Below are positions 2,729-33,500 of a stretch of 64,000 bases of DNA, piece by piece. Position 1 is the stretch's first letter; every line of letters starts with the position of its first letter. Under the pieces are notes generated by a model. The model ran no database searches. It worked only from the letters and a program-made list of their open reading frames with translations, and had not been told where the DNA came from. This stretch comes from Actinomycetota bacterium (lineage in GTDB: Bacteria > Acidobacteriota > Blastocatellia > Chloracidobacteriales > Chloracidobacteriaceae), in assembly GCA_041917435.1 (NCBI GenBank), contig JAYRXR010000207.1:1-64000 (forward strand). The letters run 5' to 3'. The translations under genes and the position numbers were made by a program.

Positions 2729-4051
2729 ATGAACATTTCCGCGTTTTCGAATGTCACCAGCGCCATTGAAACGGTGTATCACATCGACTGGGGGCGGATC
2801 GTGTCGCTTCTGATTCGGGATTTCGGCGATTTCGATCTGGCGGAGGAATCCGCGCAGGAAGCGTTCGCCGCCGCCGTGACCCAGTGGGAACGCGACGGAA
2901 TTCCCGAGATTCCGGGGGCGTGGATGCTTCAGACCGCGCGGTACAAAGCCATCGACCGGATTCGGCTCAGAACCCGACAGGCTGAAAAACTTGAAGCCCT
3001 GGCTTCATCCGGATTGCTGCCGACCACCACCGAATTGCAGTCGGAAATCGGTGAAATTCCCGACGATCGCCTGCGGCTCATCTTTACCTGCTGTCACCCG
3101 GCGCTTTCCCCCGAAACACGGGTGGCGTTGACGCTGCGGATGCTGGGCGGACTCGAAACCGAGGAAATCGCCCGCGCGTTTCTGGTTCCAACGGCCACGA
3201 TGGCGCAGCGCCTGGTCCGGGCCAAGAAGAAGATTCGCGACGCGGGCATTCCCTATCGCGTCCCCGACACGGATGAACTCCCTGAACGGCTGGACGCGGT
3301 GCTGACCGTCATTTACCTGATCTTCAATGAAGGATACGCCGCGACCAGTGGCGAGAATCTGGTCCGGGCGGACTTGTGCGGGGAAGCCATCCGCCTCGCC
3401 CGCCTGACGCGGGAACTCCTCTCGCCCGCGCCGCCCGCCGAATGCACCGGCCTGCTCGCGCTCATGCTCCTGCACGACGCGCGACGCGACGCGCGGATGG
3501 ACGCTGAAGGCAATCTGATTCTGCTCGAAGACCAGGACCGTTCCCGCTGGAATCACCGCCAAATCGAGGAAGCCTTGCCGCTGGTCGAGGAAGCGGCGCT
3601 CGGCGGACCCTACGGCGTACAGGCGGCGATTGCGGCGGTTCATTGCCGGGCAGCGAGGGCGGAAGACACCGACTGGCAACGCATCGCCCTGCTTTACGGC
3701 ATCCTTGAAAGGCTTCATCCCTCGCCCATCGTCACCCTCAACCGGTCGGTGGCCGTGGCGATGGCGGACGGACCGGACCGGGGGATTGAAATCCTTGACG
3801 GGCTGGCGGATGAACTCGCCGAGTATCACCTTTTCCACGCGACGCGGGCGGATTTCCTGCGCCGGCTCGGGTTGAAGGATGAAGCGGCGCAAAGCTACGC
3901 GCGGGCGCGCGACCTCGCGACGAATGAACGCGAGCGAACCTTCCTTGAACGCCGGTTGAGGGAACTGAACGTCACAGGGAAAAGCGATGGCCGGATTCCG
4001 TCAGCTCAGAATTTCACCGTGCCGGATGCGGGCGAGACGTTCCGCGAGTGA
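2729..4051 (+). CDS. ECF sigma factor with long C-terminal extension (ECF42-like)
   Basis: ORF 2489..4051 with start set at ATG 2729 (MNISAF...), after the divergent YciI gene. Sigma-70 region 2 ([13 protein letters not shown]...W) and region 4 ([26 protein letters not shown]) are followed by a ~200-aa helical/TPR-like extension. Adjacency to DGPF/YciI genes is the known ECF42 context. Confidence 0.7.
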
Positions 4052-22601: not shown

Positions 22602-24134
22602 ATGAGTGAACCGACCGCTGTCGTCGAACCGACTGTCGCGCCGCCGCCTCCGAAAAAGAAGGATGCCGACTATGTTTTTCTCGAACTGACCCGCAGTATC
22701 TGTTCGGAATGCAAAAAGGTGCTGGACGCCCACGTCATCGTCCGGAACAACAAGGTCTACATGCGGAAACGCTGCGACTGCGAGGCGACCGGGGGCAAGA
22801 CGATCGAATCGCTGATCTATTCCGACGCGAACGCCTACATTCACAACGTCCGCTACAACAAGCCGGGCACGATTCCGCTGCATTACAACAGTGAAGTCGT
22901 CGAAGGCTGCCCGCATGACTGCGGCCTCTGCCCCGACCACCAGCAGCACACCTGCCTCGGCATCATCGAAGTCAACAGCTACTGCAACATGGATTGCCCG
23001 CTGTGCTTCGCCGAAGCCGGTCCGGGCTTCCAGCTCACGATGGAAGAAGTCGTGGACATTCTCGACAACTTCGTGAAGGCCGAGGGCCGGGCGGAAGTGG
23101 TGCAGTTTTCGGGCGGCGAGCCGAGTATCCACCCGCAGATTCTCGACTTCATGCGCGAGGCCAAGAAGCGTCCGATCAACCTCGTGATGCTCAACACCAA
23201 CGGCAAGCGCATTGCCAAGGACGACCAGTTTCTCGAAGAACTCGCCGAAATCCGGCCCGCCATCTACTTCCAGTTCGACGGCTTCGACAAGGAGACGTAC
23301 CGCGTCATCCGCGGCGAGGAAAACATCCTCGAAGAAAAGCTCAGGGCGCTCGACCGGCTGGCTGAAAAAGGCATGTCCGTGGTGCTCGTGCCGGCCATCG
23401 AACGCGGCGTCAACGACCATGAAGTCGGCAGGATCGTGAAGTTCGCGATGGAGCACCCGGCGGTGCGCGGGGTCAACTTCCAGCCCGCGTTCCACGCCGG
23501 ACGCCACATGGACCACGACCCGATGCAGCGCATGACGATTCCCGACATCGTCGGCATGATCGAGACGCAGACCGAGGAAATGTTCAAGAAGAGCGACTTC
23601 ATCCCCGTTCCCTGCTGCTTCCCGACCTGCAATTCGGTGACCTACGCCTTCATTGAAAACGGCAACGTAACGCCGCTGCCGCGCGTGGTGAACGTCTACG
23701 ATTACCTCGACTACATCACGAACAAGGTCCTGCCGGACTACAGTTCGGAGATCAAGATCGCGCTGGAAGGGCTGTGGTCGTCCTCGACCGCGCCGGGCAC
23801 GCAGAAAAACGCCGAGGACTTCCAGGTTTCCTGCCAGGCGTGCGGTTTCGAGTCGTTCAGCATCGGCGACATCGCCAAGAACGTGAAGATGATCATGATG
23901 CAGGACTTCATGGACCCGCACACCTTCAATCAGAAGAACCTGATGAAGTGCTGCAAGGAATTCCTGCTGCCGGGCGGCAAGCAGGTGCCGTTCTGTTCCT
24001 ACAACACGATCGGCTACCGCGAACAGGCCCGCGAACAGCTCGACGAGATGGAATGGGAGCGCAAACTGGCGAAGAAAGAAGGCAAGCCTTTCGAGGTTCG
24101 CCCGGTGACATTCTCGTTCAAGGACAAGAAATAA
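22602..24134 (+). CDS. radical SAM enzyme with N-terminal Cys4 ribbon and two auxiliary Cys clusters (tetraether/membrane-spanning lipid synthase-like)
   Basis: AAGGAG RBS. CSEC...CDC forms a rubredoxin/Zn-ribbon-like site. An auxiliary CPHDCGLCPDHQQHTC motif precedes the radical SAM CNMDCPLC (CX3CX2C) and GGEP motifs. C-terminal Cys motifs (CCFPTC, CQAC, CC...C) follow. Length 510 aa. Confidence 0.7.
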   Translation: MSEPTAVVEPTVAPPPPKKKDADYVFLELTRSICSECKKVLDAHVIVRNNKVYMRKRCDCEATGGKTIESLIYSDANAYIHNVRYNKPGTIPLHYNSEVVEGCPHDCGLCPDHQQHTCLGIIEVNSYCNMDCPLCFAEAGPGFQLTMEEVVDILDNFVKAEGRAEVVQFSGGEPSIHPQILDFMREAKKRPINLVMLNTNGKRIAKDDQFLEELAEIRPAIYFQFDGFDKETYRVIRGEENILEEKLRALDRLAEKGMSVVLVPAIERGVNDHEVGRIVKFAMEHPAVRGVNFQPAFHAGRHMDHDPMQRMTIPDIVGMIETQTEEMFKKSDFIPVPCCFPTCNSVTYAFIENGNVTPLPRVVNVYDYLDYITNKVLPDYSSEIKIALEGLWSSSTAPGTQKNAEDFQVSCQACGFESFSIGDIAKNVKMIMMQDFMDPHTFNQKNLMKCCKEFLLPGGKQVPFCSYNTIGYREQAREQLDEMEWERKLAKKEGKPFEVRPVTFSFKDKK

Positions 24135-24213
24135 ACACAGAGACACAAAGTCACGAAGACACAAAGATTCCTTTCTTTTCTTCGTGCCTTCGTGACTTTG
24201 TGCCTTCGTGTTG
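24135..24213. repeat. STR-armed hairpin (cacaaag/cacgaag family) between rSAM and methyltransferase genes
   Basis: aacacagagacacaaagtcacgaagacacaaag-attcctttcttttc-ttcgtgccttcgtgactttgtgccttcgtgtt. Confidence 0.5.
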
Positions 24214-24230
24214 AAACAAAGGAGTTTCCG

Positions 24231-25037
24231 ATGAGCACTTCAGCGGTCGAGCAACAGTCGCCCGAAAACGTCAAATCCTGCTGCGCCAACTTTTATGAAA
24301 GCGAAGCCGTCCGGTTTCTGTTCGGTGATTCGTTCCATCCGGGCGGACTCGCCCTCACCGAACGCCTCGGCGTGGTGGTCGGCCTGACCGCCGACTCGAA
24401 AGTCCTCGACGTCGCCTCCGGCAAGGGGACGAGCGCCTTTCATCTCGCCCAAAAGTTCGGCTGCTCGGTCATCGGCGTCGATTTCGGCAAGGAAAACGTC
24501 CGTGAATCCAACGAACGCGCCGCGCAAGTCGGCCTCGCCGACAAGGTGTCGTTCATTCAGGGCGACGCCGAAAATCTGCCGTTCGGGGACGCCGAGTTCG
24601 ACGCCATCGTCTGCGAATGCGCCTACTGCACGTTTCCCGACAAACCGAAAGCCGCGACCGAGTTCTTCCGGGTCCTGAAAACCGGCGGTCGGGTCGGCCT
24701 GAGCGATCTCACCCGTAACGGGAAACTCAACGAAGACCTTGAAACGCTGCTGGCGTGGGTCGCCTGCATCGCCGATGCGCAACCCATCGAAGAATACGCC
24801 GCGCTGCTGAAAGGCGGCGGATTCAATGTGGACATTCTTGAACCGCACAACGATGCGCTCGGCGAGATGGTCAACGGCGTCAGAATGAAGCTGATGGGCG
24901 CGGAACTGATGGTCGGATTGAAGAAACTCGATCTTCCGGGCGTCGATTTCCCGAAGGCCAAGCGCGTGACGCAGAGTTCGGTCGAGGCCATCAACAACGG
25001 TACGCTCGGGTACGCCATCGTCTGCGGCGTGAAATAG
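24231..25037 (+). CDS. arsM: ArsM-type (arsenite) SAM-dependent methyltransferase
   Basis: AAGGAG RBS at 24218. The N-terminal SCC, the class I MTase GxGxG region (LDVASGKG), and Cys in VCECAYC and WVACIAD align with the As-binding cysteines of characterised ArsM. Confidence 0.6.
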   Translation: MSTSAVEQQSPENVKSCCANFYESEAVRFLFGDSFHPGGLALTERLGVVVGLTADSKVLDVASGKGTSAFHLAQKFGCSVIGVDFGKENVRESNERAAQVGLADKVSFIQGDAENLPFGDAEFDAIVCECAYCTFPDKPKAATEFFRVLKTGGRVGLSDLTRNGKLNEDLETLLAWVACIADAQPIEEYAALLKGGGFNVDILEPHNDALGEMVNGVRMKLMGAELMVGLKKLDLPGVDFPKAKRVTQSSVEAINNGTLGYAIVCGVK

Positions 25038-25847: not shown

Positions 25848-28349
25848 ATGTCCCGAAAGAAACAGGAATCCGGTTCCCGCCGGGAATTTCTCAAAGGCGC
25901 GTCGGTGGCGGTCGGCGCGCTCGGGCTGTCGTTCGACGTCCGAACCGACGCCGCCGCCCCGAATGTCGCTCCGACGCCGGGTTCGGACGATTTCTCGAAA
26001 GCCTCCGCCGCGCTCCAGCCCGACGCCACCGTCAAAACGGCGTGTCAGTTCTGCAATTCCAACTGCGGATTGAACATCGAGAAGAAAGCCGGGCGGGTGA
26101 TCCGCGTTCATGGCTTTGCGGACGACCCGGTGCAGGCGGGCGAAATCTGCGTGAAGGCCGAGATGATGCCGCAACTGGTTTACAACCGGTTCCGGCTCAC
26201 GCATCCGCTCAAGCGGGTTGCGGGCGCGAAGGGTTCGCCCGATTCGAAGTTTGAAAAAATCTCGTGGGACGAGGCCCTCGGCCTCATCGCCGACAAATTT
26301 CTCGCGCTGCGCGACGCGGGCGAGGCGCACACCATCGTCAACCGGACGACCGGTCGGATGCTTCGGGGCACGGGTTCCGTCATCAACCGGTTCTTTTCCC
26401 TGCTCGGCAGCCCGAACGACACCGACGTGGGTCCGGTGTGCAACGACGCGGGCGGCAACGCGCTGGCGGCGACGTTCGGAATGGGAAATTTCACGAACGG
26501 CTACGGCGTGGACCAGATTACCGGCAAGGAAGACCTCGGGAGTTCGAAGTTTTATCTTTTCCTCGGCACGAATCAGGGCGAAACGCACCCGGTCACCTTT
26601 TCCCATCTTTTAAGAAGCCGTGAAAAGACGAAGGCGAAACTGGTGGTGGTCGATCCGCGCCTGACGCCCACCGGCGAAAAGGCCGACGAATGGCTCGCCA
26701 TCCGGCCCCATTCGGACATGGCGCTCGGGCTGGCGATGCTCCATCACGTCATTGAAAAAGGTCTTTACGACCGGGAATTCGTCGCGAAATGGACGGTGGG
26801 CTTTGATGAACTGAAAAAACATCTGCTTGAAAAGAAGTACACCCCGGAGTGGGCGGCGGGCGCGACCGACATTCCGGCGGCCAAAATCGTGGAACTGGCG
26901 GAGGGCTACGCGAAGGCGAAACCGGCGGCGATTTTCTGCAACGCCGGCATCTCCCATCAGATGAACGCCTTCCAGACTTATCGGGTGTTCGCGATGCTTG
27001 CGGCAGTCACCGGAAACGTCGGCAAACCGGGCGGCGGATGCAATTTCATGCACAACACCTGGCCCGGCGGACTGAACCTGCCCGCCACCACCGGTGAGAC
27101 ACCAAAACCGGCGCATCCCGCGCTGCCGGTCGGGCCGGACAATCTCGCCGAGGCGATTCTGACCGGAAAACCGTACCCCGTGCGGGCCTACGTGTCGTCG
27201 GGAAACCCGCTGATCGGCTCGGCGAACACCAACAAGGTCGCCGCCGCGCTCAAAAAGCTCGAATTTTACGTCTATACCGGCCTCGTGATGGAGGAAGCGG
27301 CCTTTTACGCCGACGTCATCCTTCCGGTCGCGAGCGGGCTGGAATTCGAAGGCGTCTACATGCGGCGCGACGACCGGGCGATCCGCTGGCAGAATCAGGC
27401 GGTCCCGCGGGTCGGCGAATCGAAGACCGACCCCGAAATCTGGATCGACCTCGCGCACGCGATGGCGAAAAAGGATCAAAAGCGGAAACCGTCCGACTGG
27501 ACCGACAACTTTCCACTCGCCTGGAAGGACTACAAACAGCTCTGGGACATCTTCGCCTCGCTCACGCCGGGCGTCGGCGGGATGACCCGCCAACGGCTGG
27601 CCGCGAGCGCGACGCCGCTGCGGTTTCCCTGTCCGGATGAAAAACATCCGGGCACGAGCACGATGTACCTCGATCATCCCGAATGGTACCGCGCGCTTGA
27701 ATCGTTGAATCCGGCCAACCGGGGCAAGCGGTTTCCGACGGCGAGCGGCAAGGTGGAACTGTTCACCCCGGCGCTCGACGCGAAACTGGCCGTCGCCGGA
27801 CATTCCGCGCTGCCGGTGTTCTATACCCATCCGGAGATCGCGGGCGACCAGCCGAGCGTCGTTTTTACGAATGAACTCGTCGCCAACCCGGTGAATCCGC
27901 AGGCATTTACGTCAAAGGTCAATATCGGTGTGAAATCCGGTTTCAAGGAACGGGCGGCGTTTCCGCTGACCGGCATCGTCGGGCGGGCGAGCGTCGTGCA
28001 TTTCGCGGGCGTGACCCAGTGGACCTACCTCGGGAAGCAGTTGAACGGGGTCCGGCTGGTTCAGATTCACCCGAAAACGGCGGCGGCGGCGGGCATTTCC
28101 GACGGCGAAACGGTCGTGGTGGAGAGTCCGCGCGGGGCGATTACCGGCACGGCGCTGCTCTGGAAGGGTATTCGCGAGGATTCGGTGTTCGTCCAGAATT
28201 CGTTCGGCCCGGCGCAGGCGGCGGGGGATGAATTCGGCGTTCCGCGCTACGCGGCGGCGAACGTCCTGCTCGACGACGCCAATTACGACAATCTTTCGGG
28301 GCAGCAGGCGTACAAGTGCTTCGCCTGCCGGGTCAAACCGGCAAAGTAG
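25848..28349 (+). CDS. TAT-exported molybdopterin (bis-MGD) oxidoreductase catalytic subunit
   Basis: Twin-arginine motif SRREFLKG and an N-terminal 4Fe-4S motif CQFCNSNCG. The protein has the MopB superfamily length and a C-terminal MGD-binding barrel. Confidence 0.75.
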   Translation: MSRKKQESGSRREFLKGASVAVGALGLSFDVRTDAAAPNVAPTPGSDDFSKASAALQPDATVKTACQFCNSNCGLNIEKKAGRVIRVHGFADDPVQAGEICVKAEMMPQLVYNRFRLTHPLKRVAGAKGSPDSKFEKISWDEALGLIADKFLALRDAGEAHTIVNRTTGRMLRGTGSVINRFFSLLGSPNDTDVGPVCNDAGGNALAATFGMGNFTNGYGVDQITGKEDLGSSKFYLFLGTNQGETHPVTFSHLLRSREKTKAKLVVVDPRLTPTGEKADEWLAIRPHSDMALGLAMLHHVIEKGLYDREFVAKWTVGFDELKKHLLEKKYTPEWAAGATDIPAAKIVELAEGYAKAKPAAIFCNAGISHQMNAFQTYRVFAMLAAVTGNVGKPGGGCNFMHNTWPGGLNLPATTGETPKPAHPALPVGPDNLAEAILTGKPYPVRAYVSSGNPLIGSANTNKVAAALKKLEFYVYTGLVMEEAAFYADVILPVASGLEFEGVYMRRDDRAIRWQNQAVPRVGESKTDPEIWIDLAHAMAKKDQKRKPSDWTDNFPLAWKDYKQLWDIFASLTPGVGGMTRQRLAASATPLRFPCPDEKHPGTSTMYLDHPEWYRALESLNPANRGKRFPTASGKVELFTPALDAKLAVAGHSALPVFYTHPEIAGDQPSVVFTNELVANPVNPQAFTSKVNIGVKSGFKERAAFPLTGIVGRASVVHFAGVTQWTYLGKQLNGVRLVQIHPKTAAAAGISDGETVVVESPRGAITGTALLWKGIREDSVFVQNSFGPAQAAGDEFGVPRYAAANVLLDDANYDNLSGQQAYKCFACRVKPAK

Positions 28350-28373
28350 GAAAAGCGAAAAGGAAGAACACGG

Positions 28374-28811
28374 ATGAGTGAACGGATTTTTCCCGCCGAC
28401 CTGACGGCGGAGTTTCTGAATTCCTTCAGCAAGGGGCTGACCCGCCATCTCGGCATCGAGTATCTCGAAGTCGGCCCCGATTTTCTGACCGCGCGGATGC
28501 CGGTGGACGATCGCACCCGTCAGCCCTACGGCATTTTGCACGGCGGCGCGTCGGTGGTTCTGGCGGAATCGCTCGGCAGCGTGGCGGCTCATATTGTTGC
28601 CGGAGGAAACAAGGCCACGGTCGGACTTGAAATCAATGCCAACCACGTTCGCGCCGTACGCGAAGGATATGTCATCGGAACGGTGACGCCGCTTCACATC
28701 GGCGGGCGGACGCACGTCTGGGAGATCAAAATCAGGTCGGAGGATGGGAAACTCGTGTGCGTGAGCCGGCTGACCGTGGCAGTGCTGGACTCAGCGCCGG
28801 GGAAGTCGTAA
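28374..28811 (+). CDS. PaaI-family hotdog thioesterase
   Basis: Contains the motif ILHGGASVVLAESLGS. Confidence 0.7.
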   Translation: MSERIFPADLTAEFLNSFSKGLTRHLGIEYLEVGPDFLTARMPVDDRTRQPYGILHGGASVVLAESLGSVAAHIVAGGNKATVGLEINANHVRAVREGYVIGTVTPLHIGGRTHVWEIKIRSEDGKLVCVSRLTVAVLDSAPGKS

Positions 28812-29000
28812 CACGTTTCTCCGGAAGGCGTTGGCTTCGCTCGCACCGGTCGTGAAAAACAGGGCGCTCAGGCTGGAAAAAAATTTTCCGACTCCGGAAT
28901 TTCGCTCGGGTAAATTGCCAAACCCGACTCTTTTTGCAATACTCGACGGCAAGTAAATTTCATTACTGGAATGCCATCAGCCTTTTTTCGAGGTGAAGGA

Positions 29001-29330
29001 ATGAGTGTTGCCCCCGAACAAGGGTCTAATTTGAAGCCGCTTCCCCCGGACGCGCCCCTGTCCCGGATTGATCAGGTCGTGGTGCGCGACATCGCCGGAG
29101 AAACGCTGCTCATTCCCATCCGCAGCAACGTGGCCCAACTCGAATCGGTTTTCGTCCTGAACGATACCGGCAAATTCATCTGGGAAAATATCGACGGGAC
29201 CAATTCGGTTCACGGAATCGTAACCCTGATGTGCGACACATTCGAGGTCGCTGACGAGGAAGCGGAAGCCGACGTCGCCGAGTTCGTCGGATTGCTGGCC
29301 TCCGCCGGGCTGGTCACCGCAACAGTCTGA
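29001..29330 (+). CDS. PqqD-family peptide chaperone (RRE)
   Basis: AGGTGAAGGA RBS before ATG 29001. The ~110-aa protein has the PqqD pattern (LNDTGKFIWENIDG...VADEEAE..DVAEFV). Confidence 0.55.
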   Translation: MSVAPEQGSNLKPLPPDAPLSRIDQVVVRDIAGETLLIPIRSNVAQLESVFVLNDTGKFIWENIDGTNSVHGIVTLMCDTFEVADEEAEADVAEFVGLLASAGLVTATV

Positions 29331-29352
29331 TTCCGAAATAGTTTACGCTCCT

Positions 29353-30642
29353 ATGATTCCTCAGATCGGATACAACGAGTTCAGTCAGCGTTTGCATGGG
29401 TCGGTCTTCACCCATCGCGCGCCCCTCGACGTCACGTTCGAGATGACGCGCCGCTGCCCGTTGACCTGTCTGCACTGCTACAACAACCTGCCGATGAACG
29501 ACCCGGCGCGCCGAAACGAACTGACGCTCAACGAATACAAGCGGCTGTTCGATGAATTCGCCGAACTCGGGACCCTGTGGCTCTTGTTCACCGGCGGCGA
29601 GATTTTCGCCCGGCCGGATTTCCTCGACATCTACACCGAAGCCAAAAAACGCGGCTTCCTGATCACCCTGTTCACCAACGGAACGCTGATCAACGAGAAA
29701 ATCGCCGACCATCTGGCCGAATACAAACCGTTCGCGATTGAAATCACACTCTACGGGCACACGCGCGAGACGTACGAAAAGCTGACCCGGATTCCCGGTT
29801 CCTTCGACCGCTGCCATCGGGGCATTCAACTGTTGCTTGAGCGGGGGCTTCCCCTCACGCTGAAGACCGTCGGGACGACCATCACGAAGGACGAAATTTA
29901 TGAAATGCGGGCCTTCGCGGAAAATCTCGGTCTCGATTTCAAGTTCGACAGCATGATGAATCCCCGGATCGACTGCTCGCAGAGTCCGCTCGACGTGCGG
30001 CTGACGCCCGAGGAGGTCGTCGAACTCGATCTGAAGGACGCCCGGCGGATGCCCGAATGGGATCAGCTTTTCAGCCGCTACCGGGCGGCGCTGTCGAACC
30101 CGCTGGTCAGCGAAACAGTGTATTCCTGCGGGGGCGGCATTGCCTCGTGCGCGGTCAGTCCGTACGGCGAGATGACCATCTGCGTCTTGTCGCAGGTTGA
30201 CCGGTTCGACCTGCGAAACGGTCCGGCCCGCGAAGGCTGGGAGCATTTTCTCAGGGAAGTCCGGATGCTCCAGCGGACCCAGCCGGTCAAGTGCAACAGT
30301 TGTGAAATCCGTTCGATGTGTTCGGGATGCGCCGCGATGAGCGAGCTTGAATACGGCGACAAGGAGGTTCCGGTCGATTTTTTCTGCCGAACGAACCACC
30401 TGCGCGCCTATCTGCTCGGTCTGGACTTGAAACCGAACCCCTTGTGCGAATACCGTCCGGGGAGCGAACGTTACGAAGAAATACAAACTTCGGTGGCGGA
30501 ATTGCGTCGTAAGGCTGAAGAATACGGCCACTGGACGCCCCCGACGACGAACGGACGTAGTTTACCGGTTTTTCAAACCCCGCCGTCACCATCCGATGAT
30601 TTCTGCAACGGTTTCAATCGTTATGCCGTTGCCGAAGGATAA
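29353..30642 (+). CDS. radical SAM/SPASM-domain peptide maturase
   Basis: CPLTCLHC (CX3CX2C) and a C-terminal SPASM 7-Cys region (CGGGIASC...C...CNSCEIRSMCSGC) are present. A ~90-aa tail follows the SPASM region. Confidence 0.8.
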   Translation: MIPQIGYNEFSQRLHGSVFTHRAPLDVTFEMTRRCPLTCLHCYNNLPMNDPARRNELTLNEYKRLFDEFAELGTLWLLFTGGEIFARPDFLDIYTEAKKRGFLITLFTNGTLINEKIADHLAEYKPFAIEITLYGHTRETYEKLTRIPGSFDRCHRGIQLLLERGLPLTLKTVGTTITKDEIYEMRAFAENLGLDFKFDSMMNPRIDCSQSPLDVRLTPEEVVELDLKDARRMPEWDQLFSRYRAALSNPLVSETVYSCGGGIASCAVSPYGEMTICVLSQVDRFDLRNGPAREGWEHFLREVRMLQRTQPVKCNSCEIRSMCSGCAAMSELEYGDKEVPVDFFCRTNHLRAYLLGLDLKPNPLCEYRPGSERYEEIQTSVAELRRKAEEYGHWTPPTTNGRSLPVFQTPPSPSDDFCNGFNRYAVAEG

Positions 30643-30704
30643 TCATTCAATTTCGTTTTAGTACCTCTGACGAAATTCACTATCGAATCGAAAGAGAGTT
30701 TGCC

Positions 30705-30902
30705 GTGAACAACCAGAAGAACCACAGCAGCGCCAATTCCGAAACCTCCCAGTCGGTGAAGCGGACCTACCGCAAGCCCCGGATTGAATCGGTTGAAATG
30801 CGTCCGAATGAGGCGTTGCTCGGCGCCTGCAAGACTTCGAGTTCCGCCGGCCCGGCGTCGCCGTCGTGCAGTACCTTGAGCTGCTCCTCGCTCGGCTCGT
30901 AA
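30705..30902 (+). CDS. putative RiPP precursor peptide (Cys/Ser/Thr-rich core)
   Basis: GTG start with an AAAGAGAG RBS 6 nt upstream. The 65-aa protein has a charged leader (KRTYRKPRIESVEMRPNEALLG) and a core ACKTSSSAGPASPSCSTLSCSSLGS. It lies between the maturase and kinase genes. Confidence 0.45.
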   Translation: MNNQKNHSSANSETSQSVKRTYRKPRIESVEMRPNEALLGACKTSSSAGPASPSCSTLSCSSLGS

Positions 30903-30918
30903 CCGCTTGCCGGAAGTG

Positions 30919-31857
30919 ATGCTCATGAACGCAGCGTCGGCGACCGCCGAATCTGAAAACCCTTCGTCCCCGACCCGAACGCTTTCACTCGGCGGTTTGA
31001 CCATTCGCCTGATCGGGTCGGGCGCGTCCGCTCCCCTGATTGAGCCGGTTTCCCGGCGTTTTCTGGTGGATTCGGACGAAAAACCGGCTATCGCGCTCGA
31101 AATCGGCGAGGGCGATCCGGCGGAATTCGAGAGTCTGGCTCGTCAAAAGCCTTTTTTCGATTCCGGCGGGACGTGGAAGCTCTATCGGAAAGACGGAAAG
31201 CTCGTCTACGCCGTCACGGTTCCGATTTTCGGTGATATTCCCTACCGTTTTCTCGAAGTCGCCGACGATTTCTCATCGGGTCGGCTGCTGATCAATCCGA
31301 AGGCCGGAGTTCCCGACCACTGCCTTTTCCCGCTCGCCTTCCCCCTCGACGAACTTCTCATCGCGAATCTGCTGACCCTCCCCGGAAACGAAGGGGTACT
31401 GCTCCATGCCTGCGCGGTGACCGACCCGGACGGAAACGCTTTCGTCTTCGTCGGACAATCCGGGGATGGAAAATCCACCACCGCCCGGCTCTGGGCCGCG
31501 CGCGCGGGGATGACCATTCTGACGGACGAACGGGTCATCATCCGTCGTCACGACGACGGGTTTTATGTGTACGGCACGCCCTGGCACGGCGACCAGCTCG
31601 CCGCCGTGGCCGACCGGGCCAAAATTTCCGGTCTGTTCATTCTCCGCAAGGGTCAGGCCAACGCCGTCACTGAAACCCGGCCCAGCCTTGCGTCCGCGCT
31701 CCTGTTCGCGCGGTGTTTCCCGCCGCTTCACTCTCCGGAAAGTCTTTCCGCGACGGCGGCTCTTCTTGAATCCCTCGTCACCAACGTTTCCTGTCGGGAA
31801 CTTCATTTCCTTCCGGACAACTCCGCCGTGGATTTCGTCCGCGGGCTTTTCGCCTGA
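30919..31857 (+). CDS. HPr kinase C-terminal-domain-like P-loop protein (HprK-related kinase)
   Basis: P-loop GQSGDGKST in an HprK_C-like context (LLHACAV...G.AFVFVG.SG.GKST). Confidence 0.6.
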   Translation: MLMNAASATAESENPSSPTRTLSLGGLTIRLIGSGASAPLIEPVSRRFLVDSDEKPAIALEIGEGDPAEFESLARQKPFFDSGGTWKLYRKDGKLVYAVTVPIFGDIPYRFLEVADDFSSGRLLINPKAGVPDHCLFPLAFPLDELLIANLLTLPGNEGVLLHACAVTDPDGNAFVFVGQSGDGKSTTARLWAARAGMTILTDERVIIRRHDDGFYVYGTPWHGDQLAAVADRAKISGLFILRKGQANAVTETRPSLASALLFARCFPPLHSPESLSATAALLESLVTNVSCRELHFLPDNSAVDFVRGLFA

Positions 31858-31863
31858 CGCGCC

Positions 31864-32283
31864 ATGAAATCGGCGTTCGGCAGTTTCGGGGAAAATCTCG
31901 GCGGTGTTTTTCCGAGGGTCGCCATGGAACTGCTCCGGGAAGGCCGGGCAATCCGTTTTCGGGCGGTTGGATGGAGCATGCACCCGGCCATCGAGGATGG
32001 TGAAACCATTTCGGTTCATCCAATCTCCCCGATGGACCTGAATGTCGGGGATGTCGCCCTTTTCCACATTGAAGACCGGTTGATCGCCCACCGGGTTCTC
32101 CGGTGTCCCTCCCCCGAAAACCCGAATTTTTTGTTGCGGGGGGACGCAATGGCGGAAGGCGAATCCGTAACCGGGGATCAAATTCTCGGAATTGTCCCGG
32201 ACCGGTCACTCGCGCCCCGTCAGGCTGCGGCCAAACGGCTGGTTCATCGGCTCAAACGACGGCTTTTCCCCAAAAAACCGTAA
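31864..32283 (+). CDS. S24/S26 (LexA/signal-peptidase fold) peptidase
   Basis: GWSMHPAIEDGETISV matches the G-SM-P-DGD-V Ser nucleophile region. The ORF is 139 aa. Confidence 0.5.
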   Translation: MKSAFGSFGENLGGVFPRVAMELLREGRAIRFRAVGWSMHPAIEDGETISVHPISPMDLNVGDVALFHIEDRLIAHRVLRCPSPENPNFLLRGDAMAEGESVTGDQILGIVPDRSLAPRQAAAKRLVHRLKRRLFPKKP

Positions 32284-32309
32284 AAATCGGCCCTGCCCGA
32301 TCCGGCGAA

Positions 32310-33500
32310 TTACTTCCGGACAATCGCGCACCCAAGCGCCGGGCGGCAGCCATCCGTGATGGTTTGGCCAGCCAGTACGGCGTCGAGCGCAAGCTGGAGC
32401 GACCGGTGCGTCACCCGATCCGCGTGGTACGTGTTGTCGTCAATCCTTCCGTGATAACGAAGAAATCCTTTTGAATCAATAAGGTATGACTCCGTCATAC
32501 ACATCGAGTTGAGTGTGTCGGCAACCGCGTGCCCGGTATCCACCGCAATCGGGAAATTGAAGGGCCGCGCCTGCTGTCGATTCCGGATTTCCTGGGGGGG
32601 TTCGTTGGCGTTCGGATTGAAACCGATGAAAACGACGCCCTTTTCACCATAGATTTTGGCCAGATCGTTTAACCGCGCCCGGTACGCCTCGACGCAGGGA
32701 CAACGCGTGCCGACCGTCACCAGAACGACCGGTTTCCCTTTGTAATCCGAGAGTTTATGAACTTTCCCGTCCAGGTCGGTCAGGGAAAGGGCCGGCGCGG
32801 GTTCGTTCAACCCGACCGCCGCTTCGTCGGCGGATTGCGCGTGGCCGGCGTGTTCGAAATCGTCGCCGACCGTTCTCCCGCTGAGCAGATCGAAACCGAA
32901 CGCCCCCGCGCCGAAAATCGAGCTGACGAACAATCCGAGAATACAACCGGCCACGGCGGCGGTCCGGACGGTTTTCGGACCGAAAACGGCCGGGAACGCC
33001 TGCTGGGCGGTCAGAATCGGCAGCCCGCCGAAGCCGAAACAGGCCATGGCAATCGCGCCCTGCTTCACTTCCCACGTCGTGAACGCCAGAACGAAAACCG
33101 CCAGAACCAGAATATTCGGGTGAAGTATCGAAAACGCCCCGCGCAGGAACAAACCGCCGGCACTCTCGGCGTTCAGCAGGATTCCCGTCAGTTTCTTCGA
33201 CCATTCAGGCTCGAACGTATCGGCCTTGGAACGAAAAAGCCTGACCGGGAGCGCAATCGCGGCAAACGCCACGACCACGCAGGGGATAAAGAAAACGTAC
33301 CTTCCCCAGCCGATGAGATAGGCGGCTTCGATAAACCAGAGACCGAGTTGACCGGCAAACGCGCCGAGCGCGGCCAGTCCGGCGACGCGTCCGAGACCGA
33401 ACGTCATCAGTTTGGAGGGATCGAACCGGTCCAGCCGGGCCGTCCGCATGCGTAACCGTTCGATGATGCCGAGCAGAAAGGCGGCAATCAGAAAAACCAT
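32310..33500 (-). CDS. MauE/DoxX-type membrane domain fused to thioredoxin-like (TlpA/redoxin) domain
   Basis: The N-terminal ~200 aa is polytopic membrane. The C-terminus has a thioredoxin fold with the motif TRCPCV. Confidence 0.6.
   Translation of the reverse strand: MVFLIAAFLLGIIERLRMRTARLDRFDPSKLMTFGLGRVAGLAALGAFAGQLGLWFIEAAYLIGWGRYVFFIPCVVVAFAAIALPVRLFRSKADTFEPEWSKKLTGILLNAESAGGLFLRGAFSILHPNILVLAVFVLAFTTWEVKQGAIAMACFGFGGLPILTAQQAFPAVFGPKTVRTAAVAGCILGLFVSSIFGAGAFGFDLLSGRTVGDDFEHAGHAQSADEAAVGLNEPAPALSLTDLDGKVHKLSDYKGKPVVLVTVGTRCPCVEAYRARLNDLAKIYGEKGVVFIGFNPNANEPPQEIRNRQQARPFNFPIAVDTGHAVADTLNSMCMTESYLIDSKGFLRYHGRIDDNTYHADRVTHRSLQLALDAVLAGQTITDGCRPALGCAIVRK

Follow-up and report, generated by a model that had tools for sequence, protein, structure and literature searches.

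The SynChlorMet (SCM) cassette contains genes for an HprK-like protein (ScmC), a PqqD-like protein (ScmD), and two radical S-adenosylmethionine (SAM)/SPASM proteins (ScmE and ScmF), and it has been defined bioinformatically through the NCBIfam models TIGR04248-04251 and, for ScmC, PF27840 of Pfam; we know of no characterization of its product. In another type of system, homologs of HPr kinase phosphorylate lasso-peptide precursors ahead of leader removal, and this reaction is stimulated by the RRE, the recognition element of peptides that are synthesized ribosomally and modified post-translationally (RiPPs) (PMC10368454). The leaders of lasso precursors contain a YxxPxL motif, whose role as the handle for the RRE has been described (PMC10368454). 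The C-terminal Ser was the phosphorylation site in all cases reported before the study of the lasso-peptide kinase BsfK, and mutagenesis of BsfK revealed the importance of an H-G-G-G-K-S-D-D motif (PMC10368454). Here, we describe a small open reading frame (ORF) at positions 30705-30902 of a 64,000-nt stretch of contig JAYRXR010000207.1, the whole of which is called the window in the following. The ORF lies within a cassette of five co-oriented genes for a PqqD/RRE protein, a radical SAM/SPASM enzyme, the putative precursor peptide, an HprK/ScmC-like kinase, and a signal-peptidase-like protease. We regard it as quite probable that the ORF encodes the precursor of a five-gene RiPP-type cassette that is widespread in Acidobacteriota and uses the mechanism proposed below, and as highly probable that the small peptide is the substrate of the cassette.

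To our knowledge, the peptide chemistry of Acidobacteriota, which rank among the most abundant bacteria in soil, has been characterized to a very small extent. The peptide provides a testable substrate for a cassette that is carried by hundreds of species-level genomes and that recurs in thousands of metagenomic sequences. In addition, the predicted pair of modifications, radical SAM cross-linking and HprK-type phosphorylation, is unusual, and the RRE/kinase module known from lasso peptides would here be combined with another core enzyme. No name, model, or curated family was found for these peptides, and a profile would let annotators recognize such genes; no paper on the cassette or the peptide was found in open-access full texts and bioRxiv.

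Comparison with the closest described systems

In its set of parts, the cassette comes closest to the SCM cassette and to that half of the phosphorylated lasso clusters which consists of RRE and kinase. It shares with the SCM cassette genes for a chaperone of the PqqD type, for a SPASM radical SAM enzyme, and for a P-loop protein similar to HprK, and the window proteins match ScmD, ScmE, and ScmC. However, the scores were below the equivalog cutoffs for ScmD (30.6 versus 100), ScmC (19.6 versus 125), ScmE (80.4 versus 400), and ScmF (61.5 versus 400), and thus, the cassette was not assigned to the SCM family. It also has one radical SAM gene instead of two and an additional gene for a signal-peptidase-like protease, and no model for the precursor family of the window was found.

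The phosphorylated lasso clusters (paeninodin type and Bradymonas bsf) share with the cassette a discrete PqqD/RRE protein, whose top NCBIfam match in the window is the lasso type, albeit below the cutoff, a precursor with a YxxPxL-like leader motif and a C-terminal Ser, and an HPr-kinase-like enzyme with the common motif H...GxxGxGKS...DD. In contrast, neither a lasso cyclase nor a B2 transglutaminase-like protease is encoded in the window cassette or by its conserved neighbors, and a SPASM enzyme and a Ser/His peptidase take their places. Furthermore, the cores of the window family lack a conserved Asp/Glu ring acceptor, and the leader lacks Thr/Ile at position -2. In summary, judging from the gene content and the protein sequences, the cassette is likely to work like an RRE-dependent radical SAM RiPP system, and it is placed outside every named family that was compared.

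The small ORF is a conserved gene

The gene and its putative ribosome-binding site are located as follows.

30705..30902, plus strand: precursor peptide gene (synteny in 80/80 loci, ratio of nonsynonymous to synonymous substitutions (dN/dS) of ~0.1, profile matches)
30691..30698, plus strand: Shine-Dalgarno (SD)-like purine-rich element AAAGAGAG (read from the sequence; kept in the related loci L001 and L002)

The ORF has a GTG start and 65 codons followed by a stop codon; the translation ends with ...CSSLGS*, and the full peptide of 65 aa is VNNQKNHSSANSETSQSVKRTYRKPRIESVEMRPNEALLGACKTSSSAGPASPSCSTLSCSSLGS*. The start codon was assigned from its position and from conservation, and this GTG is the earliest in-frame ATG, GTG, or TTG downstream of the preceding stop codon. 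A spacer of 6 nt (TTTGCC) separates it from AAAGAGAG. The ORF, its GTG start, and the SD-like element at this distance were all found as the original prediction, a note made from the DNA sequence alone, had described them. The note had also stated that the ORF fills the gap between the maturase and the kinase genes, and this holds, since the radical SAM gene stops at 30642 and the kinase-like gene begins at TTG 30907 or ATG 30922.

For a comparative analysis, one genome per species was scanned with the radical SAM protein as query, which yielded 554 stretches that encode a relative, and the best 80 of these loci were examined. The family alignment comprises 197 unique peptides, and the best 120 of 4,854 database matches were inspected. 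The term invariant is thus used for this sample only, i.e., the closest 80 loci and the best 120 matches. The 80 loci stem nearly all from metagenome-assembled genomes (MAGs) of Acidobacteriota (Blastocatellia, Pyrinomonadaceae, Vicinamibacterales, Terriglobia/Acidiferrales, Thermoanaerobaculia, and Chloracidobacterium), and a few are labeled Binatia, Nitrospirae, Myxococcales, or Entotheonella. Two typical cassettes carry odd labels, i.e., "Actinomycetota" on a scaffold named WN_Acidobacteria and a "Bordetella parapertussis" MAG (L002 and L028). These are probably mislabeled bins and not a true spread beyond Acidobacteriota.

The peptide ORF was found by tblastn at the syntenic position and in the same frame in all 80 loci. 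It always lies directly 3' of the gene for the radical SAM enzyme, and wherever the sequence reaches far enough, the next gene is the kinase-like one. An SD-like tetramer is present at positions -17 to -4 of the chosen start in 45 of the 80 loci, compared to 11% at random positions, and 71 loci have an ATG about 20-30 codons ahead of a conserved LRP block. The dN/dS values of the peptide gene were 0.10, 0.11, and 0.33 in comparison with L001, L002, and L003, respectively, and the entropies of the three codon positions were 1.09, 0.92, and 1.59, the third position being the most variable. The absence or a frameshift of the ORF in orthologous cassettes, which the original prediction had named as refuting it, was therefore not observed; the ORF is intact and in frame in 80/80 loci and is under purifying selection. 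The implied precursor gene between maturase and kinase is likewise supported by the synteny and the selection.

A profile built from 60 family members matched 4,854 protein clusters (E <= 0.001) in a search of 5.8 billion proteins. None of the 120 inspected clusters carried a Pfam domain or a functional name. The original prediction had termed the ORF unannotated; the window comes without any annotation, and homologs elsewhere have been called as genes, the name, where one is given, being "hypothetical protein". A homolog of 57 aa in L081, a contig of 5.9 Mb, was also called by an independent gene caller. The peptide of the window had no match in Pfam, NCBIfam, or PADLOC, and a six-frame profile search of the window revealed no second copy.

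Open frames of this size are common at a G+C content of 60%, and an ORF of 127 aa on the minus strand (30621-31004), which has no Pfam or NCBIfam match, covers the entire peptide gene. The small ORF might thus be a chance open frame in a G+C-rich spacer, or the antisense ORF might be the true gene, whose frame is free of stop codons across the peptide gene in 52 of the 80 loci. However, the sense frame is conserved at the amino acid level in all 80 loci, with a dN/dS of about 0.1 and a third-position bias, whereas the antisense ORF has no family match and is broken in 28 loci. The conservation, the dN/dS, and the codon-position pattern exclude a chance ORF, and the antisense ORF was rejected as a real gene on the latter two grounds, so that together these two explanations retain next to no probability. 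As such open frames are common in G+C-rich loci, the antisense ORF says nothing against the sense gene, and the antisense frames seem to arise as a side effect of coding sequence that is rich in G+C. Taken together, the small ORF is a genuine gene.

Leader and core of the peptide family

Three features of the window peptide were delimited with the family alignment.

30705..30824, plus strand: predicted leader, residues 1-40, KR-x-Y22-x-x-P25-x-I27-x-x-V30-x-M32-R-P-N-E36-A-L-L39-G40 (from conservation tables)
30768..30785, plus strand: Y22-R-K-P25-R-I27, the YxxPx[VIL] motif, which is similar to the RRE-binding motif of lasso leaders
30825..30899, plus strand: predicted core, residues 41-65, A-C42-K43-TSSSA-G49-P50-ASPS-C55-STLS-C60-SSLG-S65 (from family conservation)

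The N-termini of the family peptides are variable and hydrophilic. They are followed by the leader signature [KR][KR]P-Y-x-x-P-x-[VIL]-x-x-V-x-L-R-P-E-E-A-V-L-G, in which Y is conserved to 99%, P to 100%, [VIL] to 96%, V to 90%, and L-R-P to 97-98%. The leader ends with [ED]-E-A, in which E-A is found in 100%, and with L (100%) and G (97-100%). The window peptide departs from this signature conservatively, with Met32 for Leu, Asn35 for Glu, and Leu38 for Val. By analogy with the lasso leaders, its YxxPx[VIL] motif would be bound by an RRE.

The boundary between leader and core is placed, by prediction, after Gly40. The original prediction had seen a GA-like end of the leader. This was not borne out, because only Gly40 is conserved and the next residue can be His, Ser, Ala, or Asn; in addition, no gene for a C39-peptidase/ABC exporter lies alongside the precursor cassette.

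The core signature is x-C-K-x5-G-P-x4-C-x5-C-x4-S, with the Ser directly at the stop codon. The core length varies between 25 and 27 residues, and positions and percentages after Gly40 refer to the commonest form of 26 residues. C-K and G-P are each conserved to 99-100%, and variable loops of five, four, and five residues lie between the fixed ones. All 197 unique peptides contain exactly three Cys in the core, and the spacing in the 120 best database matches is C-x12(13)-C-x5(4)-C-x4-S. The C-terminal residue is Ser in 194 peptides and Thr in three, the four residues before it are mostly x-[ST]-x-G, and position 23 is Ser/Thr in 89%. According to this pattern, the family conserves the Cys scaffold together with Lys43, Gly49-Pro50, and the Ser at the C-terminus. 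The window core had been described as a Cys/Ser/Thr-rich stretch of 26 residues with 3 Cys and 11 Ser/Thr. The three Cys and their fixed spacing were confirmed; however, 25 residues follow Gly40, 12 of which are Ser/Thr, and the richness in Ser/Thr is not a conserved property. In summary, the peptides combine a recognition motif with a core of fixed residues, as expected for the precursors of RRE-dependent RiPPs.

PqqD protein and radical SAM enzyme

Two genes for putative partners of the peptide lie upstream of it.

28971..29330, plus strand: PqqD-family protein of 119 aa, a discrete RRE (peptide chaperone) (PF05402, E 2.3e-16)
29353..30642, plus strand: radical SAM/SPASM enzyme ("maturase") of 429 aa (PF04055, E 1.8e-22)

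The cassette is well retained in the 80 loci, with the PqqD gene in 76, the radical SAM gene in 80, the kinase gene in 77, and the peptidase gene in most of them. The PqqD gene is directly upstream of the radical SAM gene in 76/80 loci. The small gene is thus adjacent to and co-oriented with the genes for an RRE and a modifying enzyme, in an order held in 76-80 of the 80 loci, as is typical of RiPP cassettes. The top NCBIfam match of the PqqD protein was lasso_PqqD_Bac, with 36 bits at a cutoff of 80.

The invariant synteny also bears on the possibility that the peptide is a small Cys protein that binds a metal or contains a disulfide bond and is co-transcribed with the enzymes without being their substrate. 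The three invariant Cys could serve either function, and in the window a gene for a DsbD/redoxin fusion adjoins the cassette on the opposite strand. However, the redoxin gene is kept in L001 only, and the peptide is always flanked by the RRE/radical SAM pair on one side and by the kinase on the other and carries an RRE-type leader motif. We know of no role of discrete PqqD proteins beyond peptide presentation. The probability of such a bystander protein is therefore rated as very low, and the peptide is regarded as a substrate in the following.

The motif C35-x3-C39-x2-C42 of the radical SAM enzyme and seven SPASM Cys (C259, C277, C314, C317, C323, C326, and C345) do not vary among 81 sequences. 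The enzyme thus has the CX3CX2C motif and the Cys for auxiliary clusters of the SPASM domain that are found in sactipeptide and ranthipeptide maturases. Nevertheless, it did not reach the curated cutoff of any NCBIfam family. The best matches were AhbD (123 bits), MftC (108 bits), NirJ2, WgkB, StsB, ScmE, and PqqE. The families known to form thioethers (AlbA, StsB, PapB, WgkB, and the SCIFF maturase) reached 48-85 bits versus cutoffs of 340-850, and the enzyme was thus not assigned to any of them. The top sequence matches in the PDB were PqqE (7e-13) and SkfB (5e-8). The only PADLOC matches in the cassette were to generic models of viperin and concerned the radical SAM protein.

The sactipeptide and ranthipeptide systems (subtilosin/AlbA, SCIFF/CteB, and freyrasin/PapB) resemble the cassette in having a SPASM maturase, an RRE, and a Cys-bearing core, and with rules of the antiSMASH type, the label of such loci would probably be "ranthipeptide" or "RRE-containing". 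In contrast to these systems, the RRE of the window is a separate protein instead of forming the N-terminal domain of the enzyme, the maturase does not reach the cutoffs for AlbA, StsB, PapB, and WgkB, and the three-Cys scaffold is not accompanied by conserved acceptors. Further differences are that the core parts include a kinase and a signal-peptidase-like protease, and that thioether chemistry is a prediction for this cassette.

Mycofactocin biosynthesis (MftA, MftB, MftC, and MftE) has in common with it a small precursor whose C-terminus is invariant, a discrete chaperone of the PqqD type, a SPASM enzyme, and a dedicated peptidase. However, the window precursor ends with G-S instead of V-Y, has a long Cys scaffold, and is associated with a peptidase of another family. 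No MftD- or MftF-like genes were found. MftC was the top full-length match of the enzyme among peptide maturases, but its score of 107.7 bits (residues 22-329) at a cutoff of 265 precluded an assignment.

These similarities raise the question of whether the peptide gives rise to a small cofactor or metabolite, like PqqA and MftA. A few invariant residues, e.g., the C-terminal G-S or C-K, would then be modified, and a fragment would be excised by the peptidase and then phosphorylated. The top matches to MftC and, in the PDB, to PqqE are in line with such a role, as are the invariant C-terminus, which is also found in MftA, the occurrence of the cassette across many orders of one phylum without an exporter or immunity gene, and the single precursor copy in the window's cassette. 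Yet, a core of fixed length with three Cys at constant spacing and a G-P turn suits a folded or cross-linked scaffold better, the MftC and PqqE scores are far below the cutoffs, and no genes for dependent oxidoreductases are conserved beside the cassette. A cofactor precursor is therefore considered unlikely, and a cross-linked peptide is preferred.

Kinase and peptidase

The genes for the two remaining enzymes follow downstream of the peptide gene.

30922..31857, plus strand: HprK/ScmC-like P-loop kinase-like protein of 311 aa (with the alternative start TTG 30907, 316 aa; ATG 30922 is likelier)
31864..32283, plus strand: signal-peptidase-like serine peptidase (S24/S26 clan, Ser/His type) of 139 aa (PF00717, E 3.2e-5)

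A fold search revealed an HprK/PEPCK-like fold for the kinase-like protein. The kinase alignment shows no variation at H162, G178, S180, G183, K184, and D202 and almost none at G181. Together with S185 and E203, which were taken from the window sequence, these residues correspond to the H-G-G-G-K-S-D-D motif of BsfK, and the motif H...GxxGxGKS...DD of HPr-kinase-like enzymes is thus present. Most of the homologs carry a precomputed match to PF27840 (ScmC), a recent Pfam family, which is marked "weak" in L081. The window kinase had no match in a Pfam-A copy that seems to predate PF27840.

A kinase next to a core in which 12 of 25 residues are Ser/Thr could also act in another way. Class III and class IV lanthipeptides are made via phosphorylation and subsequent elimination, and the kinase might phosphorylate Ser/Thr of the core, followed by elimination and addition of Cys to yield lanthionine-like rings, while the radical SAM enzyme would perform an epimerization or methylation-free C-H chemistry. 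The frequent Ser/Thr at position 23 would agree with this. However, no lyase or cyclase domain is encoded in the cassette, the Ser/Thr positions other than position 23 and the terminal Ser are not conserved, and the HprK/PEPCK-like fold is not the protein-kinase fold of LanKC and LanL. The probability of lanthionine-like rings thus appears to be very low, and phosphorylation of the terminal residue is favored.

The peptidase matched TIGR02228, the archaeal-type signal peptidase I, with an E value of 5.7e-7 and 29.5 bits. The cutoff is 51.85, and the match is therefore a resemblance and not an equivalog assignment. The motifs G36-x-S38-M39-x-P41, H76-R77, and R92-G93-D94 are kept in 66 sequences, in which S38 is conserved to 100% and H76 and D94 to 98% each, so that the GxSMxP, His, and Asp boxes are all present. 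This Ser/His(/Asp) pattern is that of the SipW, archaeal, and Sec11-type signal peptidases, unlike the Ser/Lys pair of LexA. No obvious membrane segment was seen in the window peptidase. It is the predicted leader peptidase of the cassette, and the peptide is its presumed substrate.

In 35 of the 80 loci (about 44%), the peptidase domain forms the N-terminal, cytoplasmic part of a protein of >1,200 aa, in which it is followed by one membrane helix and tandem DUF11/CLIPPER repeats (L008:7273-11205, L003, L010-L013, and others). In L081:6852-12855, a separate peptidase gene is followed by one for a CLIPPER/Peptidase_C25 protein of >3,680 aa. In the window, the peptidase stands alone, and there is no DUF11 match. 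DUF11/CLIPPER repeats are isopeptide-bonded stalk domains of adhesins (PMC12617251).

Proposed maturation pathway

We propose that maturation comprises four steps, which are given in the order of decreasing confidence. In the first, the discrete PqqD protein would bind the YxxPx[VIL] motif of the leader and present the peptide to the enzymes. This is suggested by the use of the motif as the RRE handle of lasso leaders and by the top NCBIfam match of the PqqD protein, which is of the lasso type, if below the cutoff. In the second step, the SPASM enzyme would cross-link the core via the three invariant Cys, most plausibly by thioether bridges of the sactionine or ranthionine type, which are the commonest outcome for such a combination of enzyme and substrate. 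In the third step, the HprK-like kinase would phosphorylate the invariant C-terminal Ser/Thr with the leader still attached, like the lasso-peptide kinases; the sole substitution at this position in the 197 peptides is Ser to Thr. Lastly, the Ser/His peptidase may cut off the leader after V38-L39-G40. Type I signal peptidases follow a -3/-1 small-residue rule, and this site fits it. The product would be a cross-linked peptide of ~25 residues that is probably phosphorylated. For each of the three specific chemical steps, the chances are rated as about even or slightly lower.

Several observations weigh against this pathway. The maturase is below the cutoffs of all known families and about equally far from StsB/WgkB/PapB/AlbA and from MftC/PqqE/AhbD, and a conserved acceptor residue like the Asp in the substrates of PapB is absent from the core. 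The kinase-like protein had weak NCBIfam matches to the HprK-related kinases A and B and to ScmC, and its sequence matches in the PDB were P-loop matches to ABC ATPases only. No exporter or immunity gene was found among the conserved neighbors of the cassette, and the giant CLIPPER/DUF11 protein could be the real substrate of the peptidase. Furthermore, the kind of cross-link, the phosphorylation, and the site of cleavage are predictions, and the invariance applies to the closest relatives, from which the loci and database matches were taken.

That no exporter is encoded and that the peptidase is often fused with giant CLIPPER/DUF11 adhesins suggests a physiological role, e.g., in signaling or in the cell envelope, rather than that of an antibiotic. 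More tentatively, the peptide may be the founding example of a chemically new class of Acidobacteriota RiPPs. Such a class would be built on an invariant C-K...G-P...C...C...S scaffold of ~25 residues, would recombine a lasso-type RRE/kinase module with a SPASM enzyme and a cytoplasmic signal-peptidase-like leader protease, and would have a cross-linked product with a phosphate on the C-terminal Ser. We hold this to be possible, but less likely than not.

Neighboring genes and related cassettes

One additional feature was noted upstream of the PqqD gene.

28915..28943, plus strand: sigma-70-like promoter match TTGCCA-17-AATACT (a single match, weak evidence)

As shuffled sequence contains 1.0 match on average, this match is merely compatible with the start of an operon and is no evidence for one. 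No terminators were found between the cassette genes, and an Rfam scan of 28000-33000 yielded nothing close to a gathering score.

The redoxin gene downstream of the cassette (32310-33500, minus strand) is convergent and encodes a fusion of a DsbD-like membrane domain and redoxin/AhpC-TSA, i.e., a thiol-disulfide oxidoreductase. Its position beside a cassette for a Cys peptide is suggestive; however, it was rejected as a dedicated partner because it is conserved solely in L001, the closest relative.

About 5 kb upstream of the cassette, an ORF of 510 aa (22602-24134, plus strand) contains the motif CNMDCPLC (CX3CX2C) and apparently encodes another radical SAM enzyme. An ORF of 281 aa (24192-25037, plus strand) comes next, and both are outside the conserved cassette.

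The bsf lasso cluster includes a predicted nucleotidyltransferase gene, bsfN (PMC10368454). Similarly, 17 of the related loci contain a gene for an NTP_transf_5 (PF14907) nucleotidyltransferase near the cassette, e.g., L005:3052-4311 (minus strand); no homolog was found in the window.

In L052, a second, divergent cassette (L052:1-3850) lies just upstream of the main one. It comprises an S24-like gene (9-638), an HprK-like gene (635-1432), a PqqD-like stretch, a radical SAM/SPASM gene (1716-2864), a PqqD-like gene (2869-3153), and an S24-like gene on the minus strand (3355-3819). No homolog of the precursor was recognizable in this second cassette, and its radical SAM/SPASM enzyme shares 31% identity with that of the window.

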